Of a stretch of 64,000 nucleotides of DNA, positions 2,204 through 34,153 are shown in pieces; the first letter of the stretch is position 1, and each line of letters starts with the position of its first letter. Made by a program: the position numbers and the translations under genes. This DNA is from Minutocellus sp. GHC0000111 (lineage: Eukaryota), in NCBI GenBank assembly GCA_977018835.1, contig OZ361259.1, positions 1,674,001-1,738,000 on the forward strand, in the 5' to 3' direction. The notes beneath the pieces were generated by a model. That model was not told the DNA's origin and did not search any database. It saw nothing but the letters and a program-made list of their open reading frames with translations.

Positions 2204-3474
2204 ATGGCAACCCGCGCCGTCGCAATTTTGTTATGCCTGCTCTGTTACGCGGCAGCTGCCCCACGCAGCAGCAGCGCGGTCTCCGACGGCGAGGAAGCGA
2301 CGCCGAGCCAAGTGATCCCTTGGCCGAGCCAGCCGAAGTCGACAACCTCGGCCGCGGTGCGACTTCCACTCGACGCGGCGGTCCGGTTCCATGAAGCCGC
2401 CGGCGGGGCCTTCCGAATCCTGAAGAAGGAACGGCGCCGCAGCAACTACAAGAAGGCGTCGGATCTGCCTGCGGCCGAGCAGCAGGACCGGGCGCTGTCG
2501 CCGTCAAATCTCCGTTTCCTCACCAGCGGCGACAACTCCTGCACCGACCAGCTCAACACGTGTCAGGTTGAACTCGACAATTGTCGGGAAGGCAAGGCGG
2601 CAGAAGCAGACGACAATGCCCCGTCCTACCTTTACGTGCAGATGGCCCAGACCTGCAAGCTGAAGCAGAAGACCGACGGCAGAGGCAGAACGCACTACGA
2701 GCTGTCCTCAAAGGACATGGACGACGACACCTACTCCTTCACCGACCGTCCGCACCGAATCGCCGGAACGATCCCCACGAAACAATTCGTCAAGGACTTT
2801 GGCACCACGTTCAGCATCGAGTCAGGCGGCCGGCCCAACGGCGTCGTCACCTTCCGCCACGCCGACGCCAAAAGCTTCGAGGGCCCGCTCATCTCGGTCT
2901 TTGTCGAGGCCGCCCGCCACAAGGACAGCGGCAAGTACGTCTACGAGCTGACGCAAAGCGAGGAGCAGGAGGAGGTGAACGCTCTCCGGGACTTCTTCCG
3001 CGAGGAAGAGGGCGGAAGCAATGACCCCGATGGCGTCGGTGTCGTCGAGTACGAGATGTGCTCCATCTTCATTGACGCCAGTAACGAATGCGATCCTGCC
3101 AACGTTGACTCCTGCAAGATGGGCAATTGTGTGTGGAAAGAGTATAAGAGCGACTGCGAAGCATGTCAGTGCTACGTTTCTGGACATGGGTCGAAACCCA
3201 ATAACAAACATGAGTTGAATGAGACGCCTCCTTGCTTTTGCGCGAGAAGAGTGCAAGAACTGGGAACAAGGCGAAGTGTGTGGACAAGAGGCCTAACGGT
3301 GACATTTGTCACATGAGCTGGCAGTGCAAAGGTGGGCATTGCAGGCAAGATGGCTTTTGCGCATCGCTCAAATCGGGCATTGATCGCTGTGGTGCAAACA
3401 TGGAATGCAGATCAATGCGTTGTTCTAATGGTTATTGCCAAGCTACTAAAGATTGGACGGACTGGCTCGACTGA
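2204..3474 (+). pseudogene. Tandem copy B of the secreted Cys-rich protein, frameshifted near 3241
   Basis: ATG 2204 is followed by a signal peptide (MATRAVAILLCLLCYAAA). Relative to copy A (TTTTGCGAGAAG) there is an extra CG (TTTTGCGCGAGAAG, 3241-3242), which moves the Cys-rich tail into ORF 3232-3474. Confidence 0.75.
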
Positions 3475-3768: not shown

Positions 3769-4944
3769 ATGACAAATTCCACTTACAGCGGCAGCGCACG
3801 CTGTGATATGGCCCATGATCAGGCAGGCCAGCATCAAATGCATCAAGGCACGATACGACGTCGACGAGGGGCCCTCGCATGTTTCGTCGTCGGATGTTCT
3901 GTGCTCTACTTTCACTTTCCTTCCTCCTCGAATACGATGCGGAGGTCACTTGCCATGGAAAGCAAAACAGACGTATCAACCAAGAAACGCCCACTCTTGA
4001 AGCTTTTGGAAGGAGGAGGGCGCCTCGGTGATCAGCTTTTCATGTATGCCTCCCAACTTGGCCTGGCTAAGACACATGACATGGACTCTTGTATGGTCAA
4101 GACCGATCAACGTTTGACCATCGAGCAGATGTTTGTAGGACCAATCGAGTGGTGCGATGACGAAGAATACGACATCGAGTGGGTGGGTGGCTGGAGATCT
4201 GAGAAGGTCAGCCAGCTTCGACGCGTCGACGACGATGCGGATCTTGTCTATGGATTGAGTGGATACATGCACTCGCCTCGAAACTTTGTCGCGGCCAAGA
4301 CGCCCAGCGGAGACTTTGTCGACTACAGCGACCTACTGTATGAAAAGCTGACGTTGAAAACAGATGCAGAGTGGCAGGACGCGATACAAACGATAATGAA
4401 AGAGGGCGAACGCGACGAAGATGAATCCACTGAAGTAATAAAGGTTGGCATCCATGTTCGGCGAGGAGACAAGGTTGATGATCCCAAGTACACCGTGGCT
4501 GATGCCGACTACTATCGAAGGGTCATGGACTATTTCCGCAAGAAATACAACCGTGATTGCGAATCAAGCGGCGACACAGAGGATTGTAAAAGGGCTCGAG
4601 TCAAGTTTTACATTAGCACCGACACAATTTCCTGGATTGATGAAAACGACGAAACATTCGAGCATCCGGACGTCGTACTGTTATCGAATGCAGCCGAAAC
4701 AGAGGAGGAAGATAACGTGTGTGTCATGATCGACTTCGCAATGCTTACAAAATGCGATCACATTATCCTTTCGGGAGGAGGATTTGGTTTTTGGGCGGCC
4801 TATCTTGGTGCCAATCAGAATGGTGGGGAAGTGATCATCGGGTCAGCACAAGAGCATCTCAAAATGAGAACATCTAGCCTTGAGGAGTGGACCAACATTG
4901 ACAAAGTAGACTTCGATGCAGAGAACATTGCGGCTGTTAAATAA
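3769..4944 (+). CDS. Glycosyltransferase family 11 (alpha-1,2-fucosyltransferase-like), type II membrane protein
   Basis: GT11 motifs GRLGDQLFMYA, VGIHVRRGD and DFAMLTKCDHIILSGGGFGFWAAYL, plus an N-terminal TM segment. Start codon uncertain (3769 or 3808). Confidence 0.9.
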   Translation: MTNSTYSGSARCDMAHDQAGQHQMHQGTIRRRRGALACFVVGCSVLYFHFPSSSNTMRRSLAMESKTDVSTKKRPLLKLLEGGGRLGDQLFMYASQLGLAKTHDMDSCMVKTDQRLTIEQMFVGPIEWCDDEEYDIEWVGGWRSEKVSQLRRVDDDADLVYGLSGYMHSPRNFVAAKTPSGDFVDYSDLLYEKLTLKTDAEWQDAIQTIMKEGERDEDESTEVIKVGIHVRRGDKVDDPKYTVADADYYRRVMDYFRKKYNRDCESSGDTEDCKRARVKFYISTDTISWIDENDETFEHPDVVLLSNAAETEEEDNVCVMIDFAMLTKCDHIILSGGGFGFWAAYLGANQNGGEVIIGSAQEHLKMRTSSLEEWTNIDKVDFDAENIAAVK

Positions 4945-5006: not shown

Positions 5007-5265
5007 CTACCCACAAGTGCCGTCATGTCGGCACTTTCTCCCGGCGGGGCACTGGCTAGAGTAGCGGCACATGCTCGACGTTGTCTGGGTCATGAGGTTA
5101 GACGTCGTGCCAAGTCCAGCATCTAGAATCACATTGGGTTCAGCTCGTCGGGTCATCTTCTCCTTGATCTTGGCCGGTCCCTGCTTCTTATTGCCGGGAT
5201 ATTCGCGAGATGTTTCGCTAAGGAAGAGGGTTGCCACGCCGGCGACCATGCCAGCGGCGGTGGAG
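5007..5265 (-). pseudogene. 3' fragment of the subtilisin-like S8 protease gene (STAAGMVAGVATLFL...CRHDGTCG*), separated from the 5' part by the 7.1-kb insertion
   Basis: Translation continues the S8 catalytic helix (consensus GTSMAxPHVAGVAAL) and joins in frame to 12370+ across the duplicated TGGAG. Confidence 0.88.
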
Positions 5266-5313
5266 AGTGATCATTACAGTCTAAGCTACTACTTTAAAGT
5301 GCCTACAATTGGA

Positions 5314-6680
5314 TTACTCAACATGCACTGAAAAATCGTTGTCCTTGACAGTAAATGCTCGAGCAGCTGCTTCTTCGTTTCTCAAGTGGTTGTGTGCGCA
5401 GGTGTACCAAATGGAGCGAACTGAACTGAAAATGTCGTCGCCCTTTTCATTCTTGTACTTTGTCAGTGCATCGTGCCTTCTTTTGTCCAGGGTTCGATTT
5501 GTGTGCAAACTGATTGTCGTTGGCCACCATTTAGTTCGGAGCCAGTCGTACCCTTCAACTAGCTTCTTCTGGTTGTCTGTGCGACTTGCGACCTCCACCT
5601 CCAGCACCGCCAAGACGTCATCCACGAATCCAATGGCCGTGGCCTCGTCGTCTCGATCGTTCTGCTCCTCCTCCGTCAAGTCTCGCTTGAAGTGGCCGAG
5701 AAAGGTGGCGTTCTTCAGTGCAGACAGGTAGTTCATCTGCCTTCCGGCTTGGTGTGCTTGCTTCACAAAAGCAGCGGCCAGGTACAGCAGGACGTGCCTT
5801 GGGGTGGATCCATCAGCCACTGTTCCGTCGTCGTTTCGATAGTACTCTCGACCCTGAGTCTGCTGTGTCGACACCCCTCCGGAGCGATTGGCCCCCCAGC
5901 AGCCGGCTGGACTCTCGGGTCGTCCAGGAACTGATCAATGTGGGGGGCGGTGGGTCTGAGCAGGGCCCGGATGGTCTCCACAAACTTGTGCCGGTGGCGG
6001 TAGACGATTGCCGTCATGGGCAAAGCGCCCTCGCCAGTGCCGTCGTCGTCGCCGCCGTCATCGTCGTCGTCACCCCAGAGGAAAGCATCTTCCTCGGCCT
6101 GCCGCTGATCCTTGATGGCCAGGCCCTCCTGCGTCGGCTCCACAGAGAGGCCGGCCCTGCTGCTGCGCTGCATGGCCGCAAATGACGCGTAGGCCGTGCC
6201 GTCCTGGCCGGGAAAAGACGGGAGGAACATTGCCGTTTGCTCGGCCTCCACCACCTCCGACCATGCATCTATGAAGCTGCTTTCTATGGCCTCGAGAGCT
6301 GTAGCCCCCCCTGCCCTCTCTTGCACCATTTCGAGGAACTCTTCATGGGAGACCCCCAGGGCCACGGCGGCGTCGGCCAGCTCGTCGACCAGTTTCCCAA
6401 ACCACTGGTCCGGAGCTCCGGGTTCATCGATGGCCCTCTGGATCTGCTCCTGGACAAGCGCGCTCGCCGCTCGCACGGCGATGCTCTCTGGAGGGGCTGG
6501 CACGTCCGAGAGTTGCGGTGGGACAGGCGCCGTGGGCACGTCTACACCCAGCTCTTGAAGCCGCTGGCGAGCTGTGGCTGCGGTGGCCAGTGCGCGGGCT
6601 ACATCGTTGGGATCATATGTTGGTGGGTCTCCCGCACCTCCGCCTTGCGTCCCGGCGGGATCGGCTCGTTCGTCACTCAT
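5314..6680 (-). CDS. Element ORF1, unknown protein; probably one gene with a frameshift at about 5875-5930
   Basis: Overlapping ORFs 5763-6734 (ATG at 6680, MSDERAD) and 5314-5874. The second frame is open up to ~5930 and the overlap contains a C6/G6 run (5892-5897). Confidence 0.6.
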
Positions 6681-6786
6681 GGCGACGGCCCAGATATGAA
6701 TGGCCGTAAGCTCCCCCCCATATTTTCCCCGCATTTCAAGTTTGCTTTCCCCCTCATTCCTACTTTTGCTTCATTATTTGACTGTT

Positions 6787-8214
6787 ATGGTATCCACCGC
6801 CGCCGAACCCACGAGCAACGGCCGCCGCAGCTTGCGCAGCAGCAGTAATAAGGAAAAGAAGAAGCCCGATGGCTGCCTAACTGGCAAGGTTGAGTACCTC
6901 CATGCGCCTGCTCCCCACGCCATCATCACCGAGAACAATCGCAAGAGACGAGAGACTGAGGCGGCCAAGATGGCGGCCGAGGAGCAGATGCAGCAGCAGA
7001 AGCGCACGCGCATGTCGGAGGTGACGGCGGCGACGGCCGATGCGTCAGTATCCAGCAGCGGAGGCGATACTGAGGGCGGTAATACCAATGGGATGCAGAT
7101 GGATGATGATGATGCAGAAACCACCATGGCGGAGGTCGCCACCACCACCACCAACAATAACAACAACAACAACAACACGGAACCGGCTGATACGGCAACG
7201 GACGGCGCCAACGAGCCTTCCGACGGAGAGGACGGAGATGCCAATGGCGTGCCCGGGACGATATCCGTCGTCGGCCCGGACCAGGCCAACGCTGTCGGCC
7301 GCAGCAATGGTGCCGGTGCTGGTGCCAATCTCAGTGATGCGGCCGTCGGTGGCAGCACCAGCCATGGGGACGGGGCCGAAGACCAGCCTGCGGATGGGGC
7401 GGGCGGGACGGGCGAGATGAACGTCGTTGACCCGCTTGTCGGCATTATGCGGTCGTACTGTGCTTTGAAAGGGATTGGCGTCGACAAGGCCGAGCTGATG
7501 GCAATTGCCGCCCTTAGAGCTGCCACGGGTGAAGCGGAAGTTACCGGTGGCGGTGATGGCGGTTGTATCGGTGGTGCCGCCGATGTGGGCCGCCTCACTA
7601 TCCCCCCCGCCAATGGCGGCGGGGGACAGCCTACGGAGGAGCAGATGGCCTTTGTTCGGACGTCCGTTGGGTTGGCCGATGCATCGGATGCATCGCCGGA
7701 AGTGCTGCTGAATGCGGTGGTCCCTTTGTGCTGCTCCCTGGCCATGGACTGTTACCTCCTGGGAAAGGAGCTGGGTGCTTCCAGTCGGGCAGGGATTATG
7801 GCGGCCGAGGCGCTGTCCCAGGAGAAGGGGAAGGGAGTGGGGCTTGGAAAGGCCAATGCCGAGCTTGCAGCCAAATGCAATGGGCTCGAGGCAGACGTAA
7901 CGGAGCTAAGCCAGAAGCTAGAGACTTTGAATGTGGAGGAGGAGGAGGAGGAGGAGTGGGAATTCATAGCTCACGATGGTGATGAGCGATACCATTGGGT
8001 GCCTTGTCTGTTGAGCGGAGACCTGGATCGTGGCCACAACCGTCTGCTCAACTCAATCTGTGACAATCTCAGTTTGCCCAGGACTGGTAGAATGGAGGAC
8101 AAAGTCCATCGCCTGCGCTCATACGTTGGGGAGAAGGCAGCTGAAGCCCGTTGGGTCAGCGATGACGGCGATGACAGCGATGGTGCAGAGGAGGAGGCAA
8201 TGGACGAGGAGTAA
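6787..8214 (+). CDS. Element ORF2: low-complexity N-terminus, coiled coil and C-terminal SAP-like motif
   Basis: ATG 6787, basic NLS-like patches, poly-N/T and poly-E tracts. LLNSICDNLSLPRTGRMEDKVHRLRSY resembles the SAP consensus (L...C...GL...G.K..L..RL). Confidence 0.65.
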   Translation: MVSTAAEPTSNGRRSLRSSSNKEKKKPDGCLTGKVEYLHAPAPHAIITENNRKRRETEAAKMAAEEQMQQQKRTRMSEVTAATADASVSSSGGDTEGGNTNGMQMDDDDAETTMAEVATTTTNNNNNNNNTEPADTATDGANEPSDGEDGDANGVPGTISVVGPDQANAVGRSNGAGAGANLSDAAVGGSTSHGDGAEDQPADGAGGTGEMNVVDPLVGIMRSYCALKGIGVDKAELMAIAALRAATGEAEVTGGGDGGCIGGAADVGRLTIPPANGGGGQPTEEQMAFVRTSVGLADASDASPEVLLNAVVPLCCSLAMDCYLLGKELGASSRAGIMAAEALSQEKGKGVGLGKANAELAAKCNGLEADVTELSQKLETLNVEEEEEEEWEFIAHDGDERYHWVPCLLSGDLDRGHNRLLNSICDNLSLPRTGRMEDKVHRLRSYVGEKAAEARWVSDDGDDSDGAEEEAMDEE

Positions 8215-8332
8215 AATGTAGCAAGTCAATGTCTGTCGGACGGAAAGTGAAGAGGTAGAAGTAGATCTAGAGATAGCAGTAGAGTCGGATGGTAGATAAT
8301 TTAGTTTAGGGGATCATTCATTCTAGAAACAT

Positions 8333-10072
8333 TTATTCCTGATCAGATGCTTTTCGAGCCTCCCTCAGCTTTGCCCTTGTAACACGAACGCCCTCATCAA
8401 ATTCATATTGCAATATTTCCTGCATGTCGCTATAAAATTGCGACAGGCATCCCTCGTGGTCCTCTACCTTGCCCTTGCGATATCTGTTGACAAAAGGATC
8501 AACAATCCAATCGAACTGGCCACCGTGCCGGTGGCTAAAGGCCTGCAATGTCCTAGCGCCGTCCTCCAAATACTTGTTTAAGTATTGGCCGATAGAAGCC
8601 ACCGTTTCATTTACCCCTCCTCTATTTTCGGGAAATACGCAGGAATCGAGCTGGGCCTCGAAGTTCCCACCACCGTCACAAGCTGCAACCGCTACGCCAA
8701 ACGCTTTCACGTGAGAATTTGGCCCCGAATAATACAAACCAAGTCCAACTTTCTTATTGCCCATTTGATGAAACGATCGAAGGGCCACTTCATCCGTTGG
8801 CATCACTCCACCGTACATGCCCTCCACGATGGCACAAAGAGAGAAAAGAGCCATGGCTCTTTGATTCTCGTTGCTGGTACCGCGAAATACGTCAGTCGCG
8901 AAGGCATCAACATATTCCTTGACGGTATTCGACATGAGAGACATTCCTCTGTACGTGAGGTATTGCTTCGGAGTCCAAAGACCCAAATCGATGGCGCGGT
9001 TGTACACTATCTCTGCATCTTCATCGCGCATTGTGTGCGTAGGAAGGACAGTAACGATAGTGCTGAAAAAAGCGGTATTTGAAAGCATAATCTCCGCCTC
9101 CGCCGCGGACTTTGCCTTGGAAATAAGATGGTTTCGAATTCTCATTCTTCTGGACACCTCATCCTCCGAAAGATACGGAGTTGGCTTGGTAGCGTTTTCG
9201 ATGCAGAAGGACGCATCGTCGAGATGCTCCAGAAACACATTCCAGAGCATCCAAAACATTCTCGGCGTATGCATGTATCGCATAACGATATCCGCGCCTC
9301 CCATGGCAGGATCACGTCTAATGTAACACAGGAATTTGTTGAGCGATTCCAACCGACCACCTTTCATCAACACTACCGACCGTGCCTCCTCATCGGATCC
9401 GTTGAGAATGCTATCCAATTCTGACTGGCTCCATTCACTCTTCTTTTTTGTAGATACGCGCGCATTGTACAATTGCTCCCGATAAGACGTGAGTAGATAC
9501 GGCTCGCCATTTCGTATCTCGTCCTTCTTTTTCATCTCATGGGGAACCAAGTGAGTTGCCACTTTGTGCTTTGCAAAGCAAACCAGCAAATTTCCGAGAG
9601 TATCAGGATTGTTCTTGCATGCTCTATCAATCCAACGAAGATGGCTGTTGTTGATGATATCGCCCGCTCTTATCCGCTCGTCGCTCCGTATCGGTACCAT
9701 TGCATCACACATGTTCGGGGGCAGCACATACTCCAACTCTTTGAACAGGTTGTTCTTGCCTGCCTGCCAGTAATGCGTTACAAATACATTGTAAGCGATG
9801 GCTCGGCCGGACCGGACAGAGTGCTTCACCGCACCTTTGTTCCAGGCAAAGGATGGCTTGGATATGATAATGCCAGCTGCTTTGCTCTTGGCTCCATCGT
9901 TGAGCATCTCGATTGTTGGTTGACGCTCGCGCTGGACATAAGCCGACTGATTGGCGCCGCTTCTCTTTGGCTGGTTGTGCCGCTTGCTACTTGGGACACG
10001 CTGCCGACCGGGCCCTTTGGGTCCTTTCGCAGGGCGACCACGGCTGCGCGCCTTTGGCTTTTGAGTATCCAT
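8333..10072 (-). CDS. Element ORF3: basic N-terminus plus divergent HhH-GPD (endonuclease III/Nth-like) DNA glycosylase fold
   Basis: FFSTIVTVLP...TPKQY...RAMALFSLCAIVEGMYGGVMPTDEVALRSFHQMGNKKVGL...PNSHV...VNETVASIGQ follows Nth motifs in order. The open frame extends to 10210, so the start is uncertain. Confidence 0.7.
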   Translation of the reverse strand: MDTQKPKARSRGRPAKGPKGPGRQRVPSSKRHNQPKRSGANQSAYVQRERQPTIEMLNDGAKSKAAGIIISKPSFAWNKGAVKHSVRSGRAIAYNVFVTHYWQAGKNNLFKELEYVLPPNMCDAMVPIRSDERIRAGDIINNSHLRWIDRACKNNPDTLGNLLVCFAKHKVATHLVPHEMKKKDEIRNGEPYLLTSYREQLYNARVSTKKKSEWSQSELDSILNGSDEEARSVVLMKGGRLESLNKFLCYIRRDPAMGGADIVMRYMHTPRMFWMLWNVFLEHLDDASFCIENATKPTPYLSEDEVSRRMRIRNHLISKAKSAAEAEIMLSNTAFFSTIVTVLPTHTMRDEDAEIVYNRAIDLGLWTPKQYLTYRGMSLMSNTVKEYVDAFATDVFRGTSNENQRAMALFSLCAIVEGMYGGVMPTDEVALRSFHQMGNKKVGLGLYYSGPNSHVKAFGVAVAACDGGGNFEAQLDSCVFPENRGGVNETVASIGQYLNKYLEDGARTLQAFSHRHGGQFDWIVDPFVNRYRKGKVEDHEGCLSQFYSDMQEILQYEFDEGVRVTRAKLREARKASDQE

Positions 10073-10512
10073 GGCTGCAAAGCGATATGTTTGCGATCGG
10101 CCGCCAGCAAATGCAAGCATGGAAAAGACAAAATGTGATTTTTCGTTGGATTTTTCGATTGTTTTTTCGACCAGGGGGAGGCTGATTTGATTTATTTTTA
10201 ATTTCATCACATGAAAAGATACAGATACAATACCTACCTTCCCATCTTTCTCACATCATGTACTTTCAGCATAAATATCAATATTTCTTAGAAAGGACCC
10301 CAAACCGTCAAAAACAGAGCTTTGCTTCTTCTCGCGCGGCATGTCGCGTGCCTTTTGGAGGGAAAACGGGGGTCTCCTCCTTTAAATTCCCCCTTATATT
10401 CTGAGACAAATGGGTTATGAGTCAGTCATGCATTCATCTCACATGTTGCGTTGCCGGCACCGGAGGAGCGGTTGTACTGGGCCGGAGTTGCTGAAAAGGA
10501 GGAGGGAACATC

Positions 10513-12198
10513 ATGAACTTCCGTAACATCGCTATTGCTGCGCTTGCCGCTCTCGGCTCTCAGCCGACAGAGGTGTCCGCCCGCGCTCTCCGCCACCGCC
10601 AGGGGGAGGCCTCATCCACCCGAGGCGATGGGCCATCGCACCATCCATGGGCGTACGGCGCAGCAGCTGCTGCAGCGGCGGCATTTGCTGCGGCAAATAT
10701 GGTGGGCGGAGGCCGAGCTCGTGGTGGCCGCCGCTCAGCTGCCAATGGCGACGAGGAGGAGGTCGACGAAGAGGAAGACATCGCCCCCCTCCCCAGCTCG
10801 TCTGACACCCCCGGAACAGCCAATCCTCTCGCGCGCATGGGGTCTGTTCCGGGACCAATCCCCGGGGCGGCACGGGAGGTCGAGTCCGCCCCTGCTATTC
10901 GCCGGACCGGACCACGACTTGGCAACACGTCCGGCCAAAGGAGGCGCCGCGACACTCTCCGCATGCTCGGGGGGCAGCCACCAGAGCTCATACCAGAAGG
11001 CACTCCCCCGTCTGGACTAGAGATCGACGTCCCGATGTTTGAGATAGACCGAGAATACGAGAAGGCAGGATTCGAGCTCACCACGCCGGGCGTGTTTTAC
11101 CACGAACGGACGCAAATGCCCTACCGTCTTGTGGGTGTGCTGGAGGGAACCAGGGACTGCCTGGTTCGCCTCCGAGTTCTGGACGACGTTGTTGATGCCA
11201 CGGAAACGGCCACCGCCCATCAACAGCTCGAGGACGCGCGGCTAGATCATTCGGCGGAGTCGATAGGCGACATCCTTCTGACCATTCCTATTGCCATCGA
11301 CGATGACTCTGATCTTACCCGTCCCTTCGGATACAAAGGCCTACGGAAGGCGCCAACCATCAAGGCTCTAAAGATACCATACGAGACCGAGCAGGAGATT
11401 GCTGACCACATCGCCGGCATGAGGGGAGAGTATGTCGTCTACTACAAGGTGATCAACGGGGAACGGAAGAGGAAGGTCGTGAGGTCAGCAGCAGGGATCC
11501 CTCGGCGTGCGAACCTGAAGAACTACCGCGTTGATGAACTTGTTATGATATCCAAGGCTACACCGGAAGAAAGATCGCTTCACCCTCGCGTCCCAAGTTA
11601 CGGCGGCACCGTTGCCGATTGTCAAAGGTTTCATGCTGATTTGTCCAAGCATAAAAATCTTGTGCTTGCGACATACGCTAAGTACATAGTTGGGCGTGAT
11701 CTAGTGCCAGTTTCAGACTTGGAAATGGTCCCAGCAGCTGGGAAGCACTGGGTGATCGCAGAGGAAATATTGGCCCAGCGCATGGACACGTGGGGAGAGT
11801 ACAAGGACTCTGCAAATTTTGTGGGTACCGCGAAAGTTACTTACCGCAAAATAACTGCACTTACCAATGCGGTGATGTTTGGCACACACCACAAGCTTAC
11901 ACCGAACTGGAGCGATGACTACCATTCCTGCCACCTGGGTTGCGAAGGAGAACACAACGGCACCTGCACACTGTACACTCACGTGACGTTTGGTACGGCG
12001 AAACTAAACGAAGGCCTTCACAAGAAGTGCCCTGGCCACATCGTCGTGGTGCAACCCGGCGGCAGGCTCCGTGCGTACAAGGTGTGCCGATGTGATGCAG
12101 ACCCCAGCCAGACCCCAGCACAACTTTGCTGCATGAAGATGAGGGTAGTTTCAGTTGGAGCGGAGGTGCCCCTGGTGTGGGTCGGAGGAAGGGTGTAG
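10513..12198 (+). CDS. Element ORF4: C-terminal His-Cys box / His-Me finger zinc-binding endonuclease (I-PpoI-like homing endonuclease family)
   Basis: HSCHLGC..HNGTC....HVTFGT...N....KC.G...CRC...CC matches the SHLC-HN-xxC-xxxxH-x8-N-x5-C pattern of the His-Cys-box zinc loop. Confidence 0.72.
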   Translation: MNFRNIAIAALAALGSQPTEVSARALRHRQGEASSTRGDGPSHHPWAYGAAAAAAAAFAAANMVGGGRARGGRRSAANGDEEEVDEEEDIAPLPSSSDTPGTANPLARMGSVPGPIPGAAREVESAPAIRRTGPRLGNTSGQRRRRDTLRMLGGQPPELIPEGTPPSGLEIDVPMFEIDREYEKAGFELTTPGVFYHERTQMPYRLVGVLEGTRDCLVRLRVLDDVVDATETATAHQQLEDARLDHSAESIGDILLTIPIAIDDDSDLTRPFGYKGLRKAPTIKALKIPYETEQEIADHIAGMRGEYVVYYKVINGERKRKVVRSAAGIPRRANLKNYRVDELVMISKATPEERSLHPRVPSYGGTVADCQRFHADLSKHKNLVLATYAKYIVGRDLVPVSDLEMVPAAGKHWVIAEEILAQRMDTWGEYKDSANFVGTAKVTYRKITALTNAVMFGTHHKLTPNWSDDYHSCHLGCEGEHNGTCTLYTHVTFGTAKLNEGLHKKCPGHIVVVQPGGRLRAYKVCRCDADPSQTPAQLCCMKMRVVSVGAEVPLVWVGGRV

Positions 12199-12369
12199 AG
12201 AGGCCAGCGTTCTTTTAAGTAGTAATTTCGAACTGTCGCCACACATGATGGAACCTTGAGCCTCTCCGGACACATAGCTGAGTTCCTAGCGCAAGGTCGT
12301 GACTGGTATGTAAGGTATTGACTTCTATAGCATTAACCTAAGCTATTCGTTATTGCTCAATTCAACTAC

Positions 12370-13879
12370 TGGAGGTGCCCTGAGCTTGGACGGATCCGTC
12401 GGTGCCAACGTTGGATGCACCGGTAATGGTGGAGCCAGGAGCAAAGAGGTCGATGCAGGCTCCATAGTTGGAGAAGGATGAACGCGTGTGAGATCCGGAG
12501 AGGCTGTCATCGACGGCGGCGACCGTAATGGCCAGGCTTGAGTAGGGAGAGAAGTTGCAGGCGTCAGCTATAGATTATTGAAAGAGGCAACAGAAAGGGA
12601 TCGATTGAGATATATCATGTGAAGGATACTGCAGTGAAGACATAAACTGTATATATTAATAAATAGAAGCCGACTACTTACCGTTCTCGTTTCCGGCAGC
12701 AATCACCACGGTAATGCCCTCGTTGACCATTTCTTCCACGGCCTGGTTCAGAATTTCACTCTGTCCCTGCAGACCCCACCCAATGACCGCCACGGCCTTA
12801 CTCTTGGTGCTGCCATGGCTAGCCTTGTGATTGCTCGCCGCCCATTCCATACCGCAAAGCACCGACGTCGTGGTACCCTCGCCGTTCATGTCCAAAACTT
12901 GAACGGGATGAAGCGTCGCCGCCTTACCGGCACCATAGGATGCTCCACCTGCAATCGAAGCAACGTGAGTACCATGGACAGTGTTCGACCAGTCACTAGA
13001 TCCACCGGTGCAGCTCGTGCCACTTTGCATCCTACCTGAGAACTCTTGATGGGCCGTGTGAATACCCGTGTCGAGGACGTAGAGATCGATATTCTTCCCA
13101 TCGTGAAAGTAAACATATGCTCCATTGCGCGGGCCGCGGGATGACATGCGATCTAGTCCCCAGTTTTTAGATGGATCGTCGATGTTGTTCCATCGCCACA
13201 TGGCCAGGGAACGATGCCCATCATCGACAAAGGTTTCCTCGAGCATCCGTTTGGTCTGCGCCTGCTCATCGGACAGTCGACGCTGGCTCCCGGCCTCCTC
13301 ATCGACATCCTGGGCCTCCTGGAGGTTTCGAACATGTTCGGCAATGGGCACCGCCTGGGCCGTACCTCGGGCGTAGACCTTGTAGTTGTTCTCCATCAGC
13401 ACGACGCTGGCATCGAGTGCCATGGCGGCAGCCTGAGCCTCCTTCAGTATGGCACTGAATCCCTTGATGGTTTGATCGTAGGTCGCCATCAGTGTGCCGC
13501 CGTAGGTGCTGATCAAAGAGGAAGCGGTCACGTCAGCCTTGGGCATGTTTCTACCAGTTGCGACAGTTACAATGTATTCCGAAGGAATTATATCAGATGC
13601 TGGCGGCGGGTTGGCCACGGCTAGATGACGCTCGGTGGTTTGAGAAGAGTCGGTCTCGAGACGGCGGAGGGGGTTGGCTTCGTTGCCATCGGGGGTACGC
13701 GTGTTGATCTTTTGAGAATCTTTGTTCTGTGACCGACTCTTGACTGCGAGATATCTTCGTTTTTGCTCGAAATTATCAGAGCTAAAGGATGTCATACCCA
13801 GAATGCACACGCCGGCAGCCATAAGAGTTATGGAGAGGACGGTCATGGTCCGCTTGCCGTCTCGTCGGCTGCCGGTCAT
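12370..13879 (-). pseudogene. 5' part of subtilisin/proteinase-K-like S8 serine protease (I9-like prodomain); exons 13879-12682 and 12567-12370
   Basis: Catalytic Asp (YVLDTGI), His (HGTHVAS), oxyanion Asn (AAGN), SNYG and IDLFAPG motifs, then GTS running into a stop inside the insertion. GT-AG intron 12681-12568. Confidence 0.92.
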
Positions 13880-22824: not shown

Positions 22825-25800
22825 ATGGACAGCAACCCTTCGAATGGTAAAGGACAAGTTGCCTCGGTGGCATCCGGCGATATCGTCAGCGATCATGAGA
22901 TCTCAGCACAAGATGTGCCGGCTACAAACGCCCGCCCCGGCGCACAAGAGGGTGTTGAAGGGAACCCGAACTCTGCCGGTACCGCAAATGCGAATGCAGC
23001 ATCAACTAATGACCGGAGGGACACCCCCATGTCTCCGCGCGGTGATTTGGACGCGGCAGTAACAAACTTTGTCAAGCATGGGTCGTTTGATATTTCGAGA
23101 AATGGCGAGGGCGGTACTAGTAATGCTGAAAATGACTCAGGTGACGAGAAACCAGCACATGATGGTTCGCGTAATCAAAGGGACGATAGTAGGGAGGGAA
23201 ACGATACAACGAAAGGAACTCCTGATAATTCGGCGGTGCCCAAGATGGATGGTAGCAGAGCCATTCAATCATCTGCCCCAGCCGCTGACAAACCAAAGTG
23301 GTCCTCCCCAGGAGATGGCAATCCTCGTCAATCCGACCGACTTACCGTCAACAACAAGCCAGCCTGCGCCTACGACGGCTGTCCCAAGCAATCCCAAGGA
23401 CGCAGACTCAACTTTATGTGCATGGCGCACTTCAAATCCATCACCGGGGGCAAGATGATCACACCGATTAGCAAGACTGCCTACGATCCCAACAAGGTGA
23501 TTCCGGCAGAAGATGTCGGCAAAGGCTGGACGGTATTGGAAGTGCCCCGCATCAAGGTCAAGAAGACGAATGGAACGAAGACGGTGGACAAGTACTGGTT
23601 CTCACCCGTCAAGCACCACCGTTTTAGGTCGAGGGTGGAGATTGAACGCTTTCAAAAGGCATTGGAAGAGGTGGACGGTGGTGATGAAGATGCTGCCTGG
23701 GAATTATTCCGAAGGGGTGGCAAGAAGGACAGCCGATCGGCCAAGGGGAATGGCAATGGCGATGGCGATGATCGGTGTGAAGATAGCGATTCTTCTTCCG
23801 ACGAGGACGATACCAGCGATTGGATATGTGACAATTGCGGGGCAGAGGTTCCCGAATCGTTGTCGCGATGCAAGTGCTACCGATGGCGCAATGGCATTCA
23901 TCCCATGATGAAGAAGAAGTTTAGGCGCCAATGAGAACAGGCACGGGCATTGGCCGAACGTTCTGGCGATGATAATGAAGATCTCAATGGTGAATACTGG
24001 GATAAAGACGAGGGTAACGGCGGTGGTGCGGAGAAGGTACCCGGCGCAACAACCACGCGTTCTGGGCGCAAGAGCGGTCGCCGGAAGACCCTTGCCGACG
24101 AGCAGGCCAAGGCCGCCGAGGCAGCGACCAAGAAGAGACAGCGTGGCGCCAAGGCTGCTGCCGCCGGCAAGGAGGACACCATTTCTACTGCTAGCCCTGG
24201 AAAGAGTGCCATCGTCACAACAAAGAGCAGCAGGGCGGCACCACCAACGCCGGCCAAGGCGCGGAAGCGTGTCAAGTCATCTGCGAAGGCTCGGCGAGAT
24301 TCGCGAAAGCGAGAGGCGGCCGAAGAAGAGGAGGTGGCCGCCGAGGAGGGCAAGTTGAGCGATAGTTTTCATGCCACGATGCTACGGGCGGTCAACGAGG
24401 CGCCGAATCCGTATGCGCAGGCCCTTGCCGCAGCGGCTTTCGATGCTGCCGGCGGTGATGCTTGGCTCCGGGAGCATGTGACCAAGCAAGCCGTGAGGAC
24501 GAATGTAACCCTAAAGGTGCTGGGGATGGCACCGATTCCGCCAACAAAGATACTTTCAGCAAAAGAAGATTCCGTGAAAGATGTTTTGGAAGAGATCGTA
24601 TCCGCAGTCGAGGCTAGAGATCTTGCGGTAAACCTTCCGTCGAACTCGTTTGTTGTGTCCTTGAGCAAACCAATGGGAATCACCCTATCGCAGAAGGATG
24701 GTGGCGGCGTTCGAGTCTCAGCAATCAAGGCCGGCAGCCCTGCCGATGTTTCAGGCAAAGTCAAAATCGATGATACTCTTCTAGCAGTAAATGGAAAGGA
24801 TGTGAGAAAGAAGGAATTCCGCGCTATCCTTGATGTCATCGGCAAGAGTGGACCGTCCGTGGACATGCTCTTTTCCTCTAAAGAAGAACAGAAAGAGCAG
24901 CCAAACCATGCCATTACGCCTGAAACTTCTATTCCCATTGTCTCAGAGAAGAATAATCTTGTCGATGACAACTATACTGCAATGGAAATTGAGAATGAAG
25001 TACCTCCGGATACTCCCGCCGAGCCTCTGGTGGAAGACCCTCATTGGGATTGGGACGAGGCGAAGCAGATCAGCTACCGGCAAGTTCTGCGCATATCGGT
25101 CAAAGATCCTCACGCGAAGCAGCTTGTGACCGATGCTCGCATCAGTGGCATTCCTGTCGTTCTCACAGATCATATTGGATGGGCTGGGTTTGCCGCCCGG
25201 TGGCTCCGCCGAAAAGACACCGAGGAAGCCCTTGATGTATGTGGCGACGAGGAAGAAAAGAAGTCCGATGGTGGGAGGGAGGCTAGCAATGCAGAAACAA
25301 TCGATGGCAAAGCCCTCGATCTATCTGATCCTTCTCTCTACCTTGACGTGGAGGCAATGGCAGAAGATACTGGTGAGCAAGAGGTTCCGGTCATCAAAAA
25401 GAGCTATGACGACACAGATCCCATCGCCGGCAAAATCCCTCTTCATGTATTTTTGCAAGAGTCTTGGCCTTCTCGTACATCAAAGACTGCGCACAACCAA
25501 ACGCTCTACCTTCACCAATGGCAATTTCCTTTGAATGAGGTGGCAGGCCGAAAGCTTTGCCACCAAAGTCAGCCCCTTCCCAACTCAATTTTTGGAGAGG
25601 ATTTGCATAAGTATTGGCTGGATCGGGTGCCAAACGATTCCTCTCTGCAATATCTTTTTATGGGCAATGAAGAAACGATGAGTCGCATGCACAAGGACCC
25701 TGGCGGCCTTGCCATTACGATTGCGCCGATTGTTGGCGAAAAGGAATGCGTGCTTGTCCATAGAGATGACGGCAACACTTGCCTCTATCACTTGGAAGCA

Positions 25801-28800
25801 TCGATTGACCCCGATAACATTGATCTCGATGCCTACCCTCTCCTTGCAAATGCTCGTATTTGGCGAACAACGGTGAAGCCCGGAGAAATTCTTCTCATGC
25901 CACAGGGCACCTACCATCAATGTCGCAACGTGAAGTCCTGTCTCTCCTATAGTCGATTCCATCTGGATGAAGTGAATCTACCAGCGTTCTTACAGAGCTT
26001 GTTCGATGGGGACGCGACCGAGCTTCTGCACGACGAAGTCATCTGGAACGCGGTCGAAGCACTAATGAAGAAGGTGGACAAAGTCACCGATGCCGGCCAA
26101 GATCTTGTGAAGAATTCCATAAAAGAAGGGAAAGCCGCCCCACTTTCCCCAGGCGATATGCGGGTGAGCGAGGACATTTGCAAGGCAATTAATGCCCTCC
26201 GGTCACTCCGTCATGTTGCTCGCGAGATTGCACGTAAGCTCGACCTCCGGGAAGCCGTCAAGGGTGTTGGTGTCGACGAAATGCCCGGGCCGTCTTCCGG
26301 CACCAGCAAAATCGAGGGTGGTAAAGAGACCTGGTTTGCAATGGTCGAAGATATTGACTATTGTTTGCATGAATTTCGCTATCGCTTCTCCAAGGAGGTT
26401 CCGCCTCTTTCATTGCGGTGATGCTTGGCTCCGGGAGCATGTGACCAAGCAAGCCGTGAGGACGAATGTAACCCTAAAGGTGCTGGGGATGGCACCGATT
26501 CCGCCAACAAAGATACTTTCAGCAAAAGAAGATTCCGTGAAAGATGTTTTGGAAGAGATCGTATCCGCAGTCGAGGCTAGAGATCTTGCGGTAAACCTTC
26601 CGTCGAACTCGTTTGTTGTGTCCTTGAGCAAACCAATGGGAATCACCCTATCGCAGAAGGATGGTGGCGGCGTTCGAGTCTCAGCAATCAAGGCCGGCAG
26701 CCCTGCCGATGTTTCAGGCAAAGTCAAAATCGATGATACTCTTCTAGCAGTAAATGGAAAGGATGTGAGAAAGAAGGAATTCCGCGCTATCCTTGATGTC
26801 ATCGGCAAGAGTGGACCGTCCGTGGACATGCTCTTTTCCTCTAAAGAAGAACAGAAAGAGCAGCCAAACCATGCCATTACGCCTGAAACTTCTATTCCCA
26901 TTGTCTCAGAGAAGAATAATCTTGTCGATGACAACTATACTGCAATGGAAATTGAGAATGAAGTACCTCCGGATACTCCCGCCGAGCCTCTGGTGGAAGA
27001 CCCTCATTGGGATTGGGACGAGGCGAAGCAGATCAGCTACCGGCAAGTTCTGCGCATATCGGTCAAAGATCCTCACGCGAAGCAGCTTGTGACCGATGCT
27101 CGCATCAGTGGCATTCCTGTCGTTCTCACAGATCATATTGGATGGGCTGGGTTTGCCGCCCGGTGGCTCCGCCGAAAAGACACCGAGGAAGCCCTTGATG
27201 TATGTGGCGACGAGGAAGAAAAGAAGTCCGATGGTGGGAGGGAGGCTAGCAATGCAGAAACAATCGATGGCAAAGCCCTCGATCTATCTGATCCTTCTCT
27301 CTACCTTGACGTGGAGGCAATGGCAGAAGATACTGGTGAGCAAGAGGTTCCGGTCATCAAAAAGAGCTATGACGACACAGATCCCATCGCCGGCAAAATC
27401 CCTCTTCATGTATTTTTGCAAGAGTCTTGGCCTTCTCGTACATCAAAGACTGCGCACAACCAAACGCTCTACCTTCACCAATGGCAATTTCCTTTGAATG
27501 AGGTGGCAGGCCGAAAGCTTTGCCACCAAAGTCAGCCCCTTCCCAACTCAATTTTTGGAGAGGATTTGCATAAGTATTGGCTGGATCGGGTGCCAAACGA
27601 TTCCTCTCTGCAATATCTTTTTATGGGCAATGAAGAAACGATGAGTCGCATGCACAAGGACCCTGGCGGCCTTGCCATTACGATTGCGCCGATTGTTGGC
27701 GAAAAGGAATGCGTGCTTGTCCATAGAGATGACGGCAACACTTGCCTCTATCACTTGGAAGCATCGATTGACCCCGATAACATTGATCTCGATGCCTACC
27801 CTCTCCTTGCAAATGCTCGTATTTGGCGAACAACGGTGAAGCCCGGAGAAATTCTTCTCATGCCACAGGGCACCTACCATCAATGTCGCAACGTGAAGTC
27901 CTGTCTCTCCTATAGTCGATTCCATCTGGATGAAGTGAATCTACCAGCGTTCTTACAGAGCTTGTTCGATGGGGACGCGACCGAGCTTCTGCACGACGAA
28001 GTCATCTGGAACGCGGTCGAAGCACTAATGAAGAAGGTGGACAAAGTCACCGATGCCGGCCAAGATCTTGTGAAGAATTCCATAAAAGAAGGGAAAGCCG
28101 CCCCACTTTCCCCAGGCGATATGCGGGTGAGCGAGGACATTTGCAAGGCAATTAATGCCCTCCGGTCACTCCGTCATGTTGCTCGCGAGATTGCACGTAA
28201 GCTCGACCTCCGGGAAGCCGTCAAGGGTGTTGGTGTCGACGAAATGCCCGGGCCGTCTTCCGGCACCAGCAAAATCGAGGGTGGTAAAGAGACCTGGTTT
28301 GCAATGGTCGAAGATATTGACTATTGTTTGCATGAATTTCGCTATCGCTTCTCCAAGGAGGTTCCGCCTCTTTCATTCAGCAGGCCAAGGGGAAAGAAAC
28401 GCTTTGCTTTGCCATCGACACTGATGAAGTGCAAACGTGACGACGCCGCGAACATCACGGTGTACAATGGATACCAACGAGTTGATAATGACGAAGATGG
28501 AAGCCCAATATTGGCCTTCTCCACAGACATTGAGCGCGGATACATTTTGCTTTCAAAGGCCCCGGCACAAATGACGGAGGAAGAGCGACTGCAGATGAGC
28601 AAGAAGATTGCAAATCTTTCCATCGGCGAGACAATTATGGTCAAAGTGAAGAACAAAATGTGTGACGCGACTGTGATGGAGATTCGCAAGCACGAACACG
28701 CTGCATACATCAGCTACGAAGCCTACCCGGGTCTCTACGATGAATATCTACCAACAAATCTCTTGCGTGAACCCATTGGCGGCAAAGCAGAGGTGCCGCT

Positions 28801-32136: not shown

Positions 32137-32639
32137 ATATTCCCTTTCTGCTGATGTGAATGCTCTTCTTCGCCCCTTTGCTGTACGTATGCCTTGGTTG
32201 GATACCGCCGTATCTCTTTTGGCATGCGGCCTTCAACACAAGTTGTGCTTTCGAAAATCGGCGGTCGAGAGCGCGAAGGTCCTTTCCGTCGTCCGTTTCT
32301 GCTTCCTTTCCTCGCCGATCCACAGCACCATCTGCCAGCCGGATGACTCGCATACTTTTGGTCGCACTTTCGGTGGCCGGCCGGCGCGCGAAGCAACCGA
32401 CCGGCGCGCCCAACGCGAGCCACCATGGCGGCAAAAATTCAAATTGCCGCCGCTACGTGCAGAACGAAGGCGATATCTCGCGCTGGTGTGGGAGAATTAC
32501 GGCACGAGACCAACCAGGTACTCCCGACATCCTGGTGATATCCCCGTTGGTCTCGATCCATAGTTCTCCATGAGCAAAAAAAATAACGGCCGCAATCCCG
32601 CGGTCAACACCGCAGACAGAGTTGCGGTGAAGGACGCCC

Positions 32640-34153
32640 TTGGCTGAACTGCTCGTCCGTCTTCGCAGAAAGGAACTTCATTGCTACAATTTCATCGGCA
32701 ACAACAACGACTCCTTGATGAATGTGTTGGGATGCAGTCCCATCATGTACGGCACCGTCATGCACACTGCGGGCATCTTGGGTTTGAAGAAGAAGAAACA
32801 CGAAGACTGCGCACGATGTGTTTTTTGTGAGAGGACAGACAACCAGAATGGATGGGATGAAATGGCATCAAGACACTGCCTTGCCGACGACGTTCAGCGA
32901 ACCCCATACAAAAAGAGCATATTTGTTCGCCTCGGTTCTGTCAATCCTCGTGCAGCCGACGCTCTCCATGATGATGGATGGATGGCTTTCGACATGTGGT
33001 CACGGTCGAGCAACAATTTCGCCTCGAAATGCCGCCGCCGCGGCTCAATTTGACGAAGGCATGTAATGCATTCCTCAAGTCGGTCGCACCACATGTGTCG
33101 GTGGGATATGCAGCGATGGACTACGAAATCAACAGGCAGATGTTGCTCGAGGCCCAGAAGTTCCCTGGTGGGCACAATGGCCAGGACGATGGGTGGGACA
33201 ATGACGACGATGTTGGGACGGTGGGCACCCTGACCACGACGGAGGCCGGCGAGATCAGTGAGGACGATGACGACGAAGACGAGGACTATGTGCCCTGTTA
33301 TGAGGACGAAGCTGACATTGCAAGAGAGGACGCTACACATGAAGCACACATGCAGCAGCACTTTGAGAAGAGTCGTCAGAAGCACGGTGATGGCGAGCCA
33401 GAGATGGGAGCTGTCGATGATGCCGAGGATGACGATGCCCCTCACTTCCATTTCCTGAAAAAGGCCGGCATTGAGGCGGCCGACTCAGGTAAAATAAGGG
33501 CAGTGCTGGCAGAATGCTGGAGAGCTTTATCTGTTAACATTTCTGATGGCAACAACAAGAAGAAACCAAGGACAATAGAGTTCATCCACCATAACACCTC
33601 CACCAAAGGAACTCTCCTAGAGCACAATCGCGAGGAAGATGGCATGACGGATGACGACATCAAAGAGCTCTGCAAAGCTTGCTCTAATTTGCTCCACACT
33701 CTTGACGCAATGTGTTCCAGGTTTCTGAAATGGTACATGAAATGGGATGACGAGGCAAAGAAGGCTGTGAGAGAGCTTGAAGCATTGATTGCAAGTGCCC
33801 TCAAGCAAGCACGGGCAATCGGTGTTAGCACAACGCCCAAGTGGCACTTGCTCGAAGATCACATCTTGGACCAACACATTTGGCTAGTGAAGAATGGATG
33901 GGGCGGCATCTATTGGCTCGACGAACAGTTTGTAGAGCGAGCCCACCAAGAGGGCGTTAAGGAAGATCGTCGGACTCAGGGCGTCAAGGGACATGAGGCC
34001 CAACAGACGGCGCAGTTCAAGGCTGAGGAGAGGGCATCCAATCCAAAGGTCGAGGAGAGGCGGGAGAGCGAAACTCTCGGGTGGCAAGAACAAGGAAAAG
34101 GACAAGGACCGAAGCTGTTAAAGCAGAAACTGATGACAAGCGCCAACAAATGA
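32640..34153 (+). mobile_element. Degenerate DDE DNA transposase remnant (Transib/Chapaev/RAG1-like C-terminal motif)
   Basis: TTPKWHLLEDH...GGIYWLDEQFVERAHQ resembles the TPKxHxxxxH...G..xEQxxExxH signature. The upstream frame is fragmented and no ends were defined. Confidence 0.6.

Follow-up and report, generated by a model that had tools for sequence, protein, structure and literature searches.

Here we analyze an insertion of 7104 bp that interrupts a subtilisin gene of Minutocellus sp. GHC0000111. The insertion lies in a stretch of 64,000 nucleotides (contig OZ361259.1, positions 1,674,001 to 1,738,000 of the forward strand), which we call the window and from the first letter of which all positions are counted. 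An initial annotation, made from the letters alone, had proposed the insertion as a candidate undescribed mobile element carrying four genes. The element is real and appears undescribed: we found no description of this gene combination in open-licence papers and preprints (Repbase was not searched). New beyond that annotation are the catalytic-codon target, a scarred element-free allele, a recurring right end and the apparent decay of this copy. The features of the locus, with open reading frames abbreviated as ORF, are as follows.

5007 to 5260, minus strand: 3' part of the interrupted host subtilisin gene
5249 to 5260, plus strand: host bases replaced by 3 others in the element-free allele, net change -9 bp (joint 5248 to 12370)
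5261 to 5265, plus strand: left 5-bp direct repeat TGGAG, containing the host catalytic-serine codon (minus strand)
5266 to 12369, no strand assigned: inserted element, 7104 bp (7105 bp if read with a 4-bp duplication); hemizygous, single full copy
5287 to 5299, minus strand: 13-nt motif behind the ORF1b stop, inverted partner of 12212 to 12224 (weak)
5314 to 5934, minus strand: ORF1b, a frame of 206 codons that overlaps ORF1a at an offset of -1; probably encodes the C-terminal half of ORF1, split off by a frameshift
5763 to 6734, minus strand: ORF1a, unknown protein with an acidic low-complexity middle, probable start at 6680
6700 to 8214, plus strand: ORF2, mostly low-complexity, probable start at 6787; SAP-like stretch at about 8035 to 8130 by eye only
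8333 to 10207, minus strand: ORF3, probable start at 10072; C-terminal HhH-GPD (endonuclease III-like) domain at about 8549 to 9082, predicted
10513 to 12198, plus strand: ORF4, 561 amino acids, with a conserved middle domain and a predicted C-terminal His-Cys box (His-Me finger) nuclease domain at about 11932 to 12132
12212 to 12224, plus strand: 13-nt motif behind the ORF4 stop, inverted partner of 5287 to 5299
12300 to 12368, plus strand: right-end module of about 70 bp, recurring in other contigs with different neighbours on both sides
12370 to 12374, plus strand: right 5-bp direct repeat TGGAG
12375 to 13879, minus strand: 5' part of the split subtilisin gene of the host, including a GT-AG intron (12568 to 12681)

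The insertion site and the two alleles

Direct repeats of TGGAG at 5261-5265 and 12370-12374 flank the 7104-bp interior, as first reported. Deleting 5266-12374, that is, the interior plus one repeat, restores an open subtilisin frame, which continues across the region of the S8 catalytic serine and ends with the stop at 5007. This confirms the earlier reconstruction of the host gene, the 5' part of which matches Peptidase_S8 (E 2.9e-11) and Inhibitor_I9 in Pfam. The breakpoint falls within the catalytic-serine codon of this minus-strand gene; we take the Gly-Thr-Ser motif, the Ser codon of which lies inside the TGGAG repeat, to be the S8 catalytic serine. A junction overlap of at least five bases has a computed chance probability of p ~0.005, and no target bases were lost from the filled allele. 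The ends had been described as defined to the base. The TGGAG repeats support this, but the 5-bp reading is not unique, since T precedes GGAG on both sides and the ends are also readable as a 4-bp GGAG duplication with AGT...ACT termini and an element of 7105 bp.

In agreement with the initial annotation, the ends show no terminal inverted repeat (TIR), long terminal repeat (LTR) or split repeat, and their outermost 75 and 71 bases resemble each other no more than shuffled sequences do (P 0.24 direct, 0.31 inverted). On the former value we rejected the idea that the two ends are old direct repeats. There are no terminal or internal complementary repeats at the element, and neither end has an internal copy in the window. 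A motif of 13 nt is present at just two places in the 64 kb, in inverted orientation, 13-14 bases behind the stops of the outer genes (ORF1b and ORF4). The pair was chosen after the fact (P ~0.04) and is a weak candidate for a 3'-end signal or a subterminal binding site. A giant intron was considered and rejected: the minus strand of the insertion opens with GT, but the other junction lacks AG. The element has no Rfam match at E up to 1 and no splice or ribozyme signal.

The stretch is held wholly or partly by 14 of the 18 sequencing runs listed, under four study codes, and eight of these 14 are RNA. Assembled contigs of four runs were mapped to the window, namely X1, X3 and X5 (non-RNA) and X6 (RNA). 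The window may itself derive from X1 or X3, and X5 perhaps belongs to the same campaign, so the three non-RNA runs do not constitute independent support. Depth is flat over the element, at ~86 compared with 166 on the shared flank in X1 and ~101 compared with 204 in X3. All three non-RNA runs contain an element-free allele, which the initial annotation had suggested looking for, with position 5248 joined to 12370 at single-haplotype depth. Of the two junctions, which were likewise to be sought in spanning sequence, the left is bridged by contigs covering 5199-7101 in X1 and X3, and the right is unbridged among the contigs listed, in which pieces end at 12362, where the graph branches. Because of the half depth, the element-free joint and the bridged left junction, we conclude that the insertion is real, single-copy and hemizygous, and not a misassembly.

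In the element-free allele, 12 bases (5249-5260) directly beside the insertion site are replaced by 3. The net in-frame loss of 9 bp removes three residues just after the catalytic serine, and among the indels listed this scar is the only coding one between the alleles near the site. The two haplotypes are old, because the subtilisin intron (12568-12681) differs strongly between them, with 38 substitutions and 9 gaps in one 269-base contig. Six of the seven exon-2 differences listed are synonymous, the nearest lying 45 bp from the junction. The haplotypes thus probably diverged with the host gene still intact; one of them would have acquired the insertion afterwards, and the other was probably free of the element throughout. 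With mostly synonymous differences reaching this close to the site, we consider cleavage of the empty site and its error-prone repair more likely than a simple excision footprint. The scar may also have arisen by coincidence, or a paralogue may be posing as the allele.

Other differences between the runs and the window were seen nearby. About 120 bases (4698-4819) in a glycosyltransferase-11 gene beside the insertion are skipped by the other haplotype in X1, X3 and X5. All three of these runs read another base than the window at 9940 and 13443, the C at 9940 agreeing with database protein P0001, and the window bases at both positions are probably errors of this assembly version. An extra base at 5780 in one contig (depth 36-38) and loose ends near 6040 probably reflect low-complexity matches.

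The genes and the recurring right end of the element

A HMMER search with ORF4 over 1.84 billion representatives gave seven matches, six of which are true relatives (E 2e-120 to 2e-5, 28-76% identity). We excluded the seventh, P0011, from the alignments as spurious, since it is a repetitive protein rich in Cys. All relatives are located on contigs of at most 3.6 kb, and one occurs also in a marine-eukaryote transcript set. A His-Cys pattern with His-x8-Asn is present in seven of seven family members (the query, five relatives and an additional cluster member; the count excludes the sixth relative, P0007, which diverges ahead of the domain), compared with none of 20000 shuffles, and H474, H490, N499 and six Cys are invariant in the alignment. 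The second His and the Asn are spaced like H110 and N119 of I-PpoI (PMC9587614). The only Pfam match on the nuclease domain is PF05551 (E 0.04), below its cut-off, so that the earlier call of a His-Cys-box nuclease-like protein is borne out at the level of motifs. The middle domain, at 10921-11724 (residues 137-404), is conserved among the relatives, and its model has a predicted local distance difference test score (pLDDT) of 79-92 over residues 291-360. It gave no fold match and is a candidate DNA-recognition domain.

ORF3 has one relative, P0002, which is 80% identical and found on 8 contigs of at most 8.7 kb. A hidden Markov model built from seven endonuclease III/MutY proteins scores 7.2-7.7 bits with colinear motifs, the best of 1000 shuffles reaching 3.1, and a pairwise profile test places the same region of ORF3 in register, weakly (E 0.066). 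The HhH-GPD-like assignment made earlier for the third gene therefore stands at the level of a weak profile. Catalytic Lys is present in both ORF3 and P0002, and P0002 also keeps the Asp motif; ORF3 lacks 10 residues here, including the position of the catalytic aspartate kept in P0002. There was no Pfam match of ORF3 to HhH-GPD, the C-terminal iron-sulfur-cluster cysteines of endonuclease III are absent from the ORF3 alignment, and a viral scan for endonuclease III references found none. As judged from this weak but colinear match, ORF3 is likely a DNA-repair enzyme, a prediction from sequence.

The first of the four genes is not a single intact ORF: it is split into frames at 5763-6734 and 5314-5934, which overlap. 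Contigs of both DNA and RNA run across the region shared by ORF1a and ORF1b without an indel, and because of this we regard the frameshift as real. In profile scans ORF1a had no credible family match, and no relatives of ORF1b were found in a search for longer proteins or, by near-exact words, in viral contigs. The stretch at about 8035-8130 of ORF2 resembles a SAP motif by eye. This earlier call gained no profile support, there being no SAP match to ORF2 in Pfam or among PDB sequences. In RNA run X6, contigs cover 16 of 30 bins and lie over ORF1, ORF2, the 3' part of ORF3 and ORF4, which hints that the element genes are transcribed; the contigs show neither strand nor level. None lie on the host flanks or over most of ORF3 (8794-10398), and this non-coverage is no proof of silence.

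The initial annotation had also noted the absence of motifs for known mobility enzymes. The main ORFs and 26 frames and sub-frames of the element gave no match to a DDE transposase, tyrosine recombinase, HUH enzyme, reverse transcriptase (RT) or capsid protein in Pfam, NCBIfam and PHROG, a negative result that leaves room for remote transposase homology. ORF1a, ORF3 and ORF4 each form a cluster of one member, compared with two members for a host gene and 70 for a transposase-like ORF of the window. Scans needing near-exact words found no relatives of the element in viral or metagenome contigs or in prokaryote genomes, and PDB sequence searches and a phage collection gave no relevant match to its proteins. 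A candidate relative, locus L010, was rejected as a chance word match in an unrelated bacterial protein.

The right end of the element recurs elsewhere. In each of the three non-RNA runs, the contig depth summed at 12319-12325 reaches 8-16 times that of a single copy, a figure that is not itself a copy number. Of the 18 loose ends listed, 11 fall at 12299-12301 or 12351-12368, with differing neighbours. The left end has no depth excess in its bin. The repeat-defined end lies within 1-3 bases of the points at which the other contigs diverge, and on this ground we tie the module to the terminus of the element.

Possible modes of movement

We tentatively prefer to regard the element as a decaying member of an undescribed family of selfish cassettes, probably inserted in trans, with a predicted His-Cys nuclease that likely cuts the element-free allele. 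We infer the following mechanism. A transposase or recombinase supplied in trans would recognize the right-end module of ~70 bp and insert the cassette with a duplication of 4-5 bp. ORF4 would then cut the intact empty site, and repair would copy the cassette onto the homologue (homing); in the present case, error-prone repair would instead have left the 9-bp-shorter, probably resistant allele. ORF3, a predicted glycosylase/lyase in intact relatives, and ORF2 could act as accessories, for example in removing modified bases to escape silencing. We propose a homing-like process because the scar abuts the insertion point and the target is a catalytic codon, conserved target sites being typical of homing endonucleases (PMC3943268). 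The right end, unlike the genes, is present at other places too, which also speaks for this interpretation. To judge from its letters, this copy looks decayed, by the frameshift in ORF1 and the deletion of the catalytic-aspartate segment in ORF3.

Several points weigh against this interpretation. His-Cys enzymes are described as homodimers that need a palindromic target (PMC3943268), and the target here lacks palindromic symmetry, no centre near the site giving more than 4 complementary pairs out of 9. There is a single scar in one genotype, and X1, X3 and X5 are perhaps not independent. Classical homing elements splice out, whereas this element, with neither splice nor ribozyme signal, destroys the allele. 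The His-Me nuclease of KolobokP seems not to set the target site (PMC9587614). Profile matches, including that to PF05551 (E 0.04), stay under curated cut-offs, and the AlphaFold models (pLDDT 46 and 32) are too poor to confirm folds, the fold searches made with them being empty. At the other right-end loci, the module may exist as a free repeat of 70 bp and not as the end of an element. Nor did we find an enzyme that could act in trans, though the whole genome was not searched for one.

The closest parallel to how the element would work is a homing endonuclease gene carried by a transposon, which has been proposed for KolobokP (PMC9587614). KolobokP likewise belongs to the DNA elements of eukaryotes and encodes a His-Me finger nuclease of His-Cys-box type, its spread has been proposed to proceed partly by cleavage and repair, and short solo end units occur in it (PMC9587614). 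By contrast, KolobokP has a DDD/E transposase, long terminal direct repeats of 450-660 bp with TIRs, and a small nuclease (PMC9587614), whereas the element described here has no DDE match, dissimilar ends, and a 561-amino acid nuclease with an extra domain beside an HhH-GPD gene. With I-PpoI-type homing endonucleases it shares the spacing of metal-ligand and catalytic residues, a highly conserved site and a damaged empty allele (PMC3943268, PMC9587614). It differs from the homing endonucleases of group I introns in that it lies in a protease gene rather than in ribosomal DNA, has no ribozyme match, is unspliced and flanked by a duplication, has a non-palindromic target and carries three more genes. 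In structure, the element departs from KolobokP, group I introns, retroelements and polinton-like viruses; with respect to retroelements (LTR, DIRS/Ngaro and non-LTR), it has no RT match and neither LTRs nor split repeats.

In the literature available to us, eukaryotic His-Cys nucleases are tied to group I introns of ribosomal DNA or to DDE-bearing KolobokP (PMC3943268, PMC9587614). If a free-standing His-Cys nuclease indeed resides in a duplication-flanked cassette at a catalytic codon opposite a scarred allele, homing-like drive would extend to ordinary nuclear genes of algae. The intact site, the scarred site and the junctions are known substrates for a direct bench test of such drive.

It is also possible, with somewhat less probability, that the element is a non-autonomous, cargo-laden derivative of a known DNA transposon, either Crypton-like or related to a DDE transposon with 5-bp target-site duplications (TSDs) such as hAT5/CMCT. 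The nuclease would then be passive, and the scar an excision footprint or a matter of chance. That only an element end recurs in the genome and that the copy is decayed would fit such an origin. CryptonS elements of oomycetes and a diatom have terminal direct repeats of 5-6 bp and no TIRs, and like the present element they occur in stramenopile hosts at low copy number (PMC3212892); the ends described here resemble theirs. hAT5 produces 5-bp TSDs, Kyakuja lacks TIRs, and fungal transposons carry epigenetic enzymes as cargo (PMC12730594). No remnant of a recombinase or transposase was detected in any frame scanned, in particular no tyrosine-recombinase (R-H-R-Y) match, and the cargo differs from that of CryptonS; the repeat is not the TATGG of most CryptonS, nor are the termini CA..TG (PMC3212892, PMC12730594). 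The TET/JBP-carrying KDZ and CMCT transposons of fungi resemble the element in having a base-modifying enzyme as cargo and, in Kyakuja, in lacking TIRs; they differ in that here the cargo is HhH-GPD-like, no transposase is matched, the termini are not CA..TG and the TSD is 4-5 rather than 7-8 bp (PMC12730594). If the HhH-GPD-like enzyme is indeed borne by a transposon, it would parallel the TET/JBP cargo as a possible anti-silencing device. For the scar to be an excision footprint, the element must once have resided on the empty haplotype, which is set apart by mostly synonymous changes to within 45 bp of the site. Replitrons share short terminal direct repeats, the lack of TIRs and an important right end; the element has no profile match to the HUH/Rep endonuclease of Helitrons and Replitrons, and Replitrons were reported as not found in diatoms (PMC10288648).

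Rather unlikely, in our judgment, is an autonomous new class, in which the four genes alone would mobilize the element. A staggered His-Cys cut (4-bp GGAG, AGT...ACT) would open the target, the glycosylase/lyase together with ORF1 or ORF2 would prepare the ends, and host repair would join them. We consider doubtful, to a like degree, the wider claim of a new class of mobile DNA free of DDE, tyrosine-recombinase, HUH and RT enzymes, in which a His-Cys nuclease, a glycosylase and two unknown proteins would insert at conserved protease active-site codons and drive between homologues without splicing; the element would then be a natural homing element that needs no splicing and resides in a protein-coding gene of the nucleus. 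The 4-base overhangs left by I-PpoI-type enzymes fit the 4-bp reading of the duplication (PMC9587614). No known mobility enzyme was matched in the element, no known family was matched by ORF1, ORF2, the N-terminal half of ORF3 or the middle of ORF4, and relatives of ORF3 and ORF4 occur in other samples. Against self-sufficiency, only one full copy and one target site were seen, ORF1 and ORF3 are damaged here, the four genes are known together from this copy alone, and the negative profile scan is compatible with a remote transposase. Of the original proposal of a new mobile element, an insertion without a known transposase is thus upheld and self-mobility is not, since the copy looks defective, only its right end recurs and no second full copy was found. 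A non-autonomous element is at least as likely as a self-moving cassette. If the four genes did prove sufficient for movement, this would amount to a new transposition chemistry.

One-off capture of foreign DNA, such as a fragment of a virus or polinton-like element or DNA of another protist, at a double-strand break is improbable, with the 5-bp repeat then being microhomology. A single copy, rare genes and the lack of terminal repeats would suit a capture event, and polinton-like viruses carry HNH nucleases and make 4-6-bp TSDs (PMC12220804). On the other hand, the right end of the element falls where a repeated module ends, the filled allele lost no target bases, and there was no capsid, polymerase or integrase match and, in scans by near-exact words, no viral locus from the element queries. 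Polintons and polinton-like viruses span 14-40 kb and have long TIRs, a capsid protein and an integrase (PMC12220804), compared with 7.1 kb, no TIR and no such matches here. An assembly artefact or relocated host genes, for which the unbridged right junction and other near-perfect tandem duplications of the window might speak, is highly improbable in view of the bridged left junction, the empty allele and flat half depth in three runs, and the genes, at single-haplotype depth and in clusters of one member compared with two for a host gene, have neither a second allele nor a native locus.

Two duplications in the window are near-perfect or exact. Positions 1-673 and 2674-3372 form a near-identical direct duplication with 2673-bp spacing, in a gene with a Cys-rich end, which represents tandem copies or an assembly duplication. 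At 24452-26714, an exact tandem duplication with 1963-bp spacing lies inside a PDZ/JmjC gene and is either internal to that gene or an assembly artefact. The window also encodes a RanBP-zinc-finger FG-repeat protein; this and the spliceosomal intron of the host gene mark the host as a eukaryote, by the style of its genes probably a diatom. The transposase-like ORF mentioned above (32978-34153, plus strand) contains PKxHxLxxH...ExxH, a pattern that we take to be that of CACTA/Transib-type transposases. It has no Pfam match, and its surroundings share nothing with the ends of the element. A 24-nt inverted repeat, 83% complementary with arms 31 bases apart, lies upstream of it at 32491-32569. Its 70-member cluster is spread over many long contigs, and this ORF probably represents an abundant transposon family of this genome.

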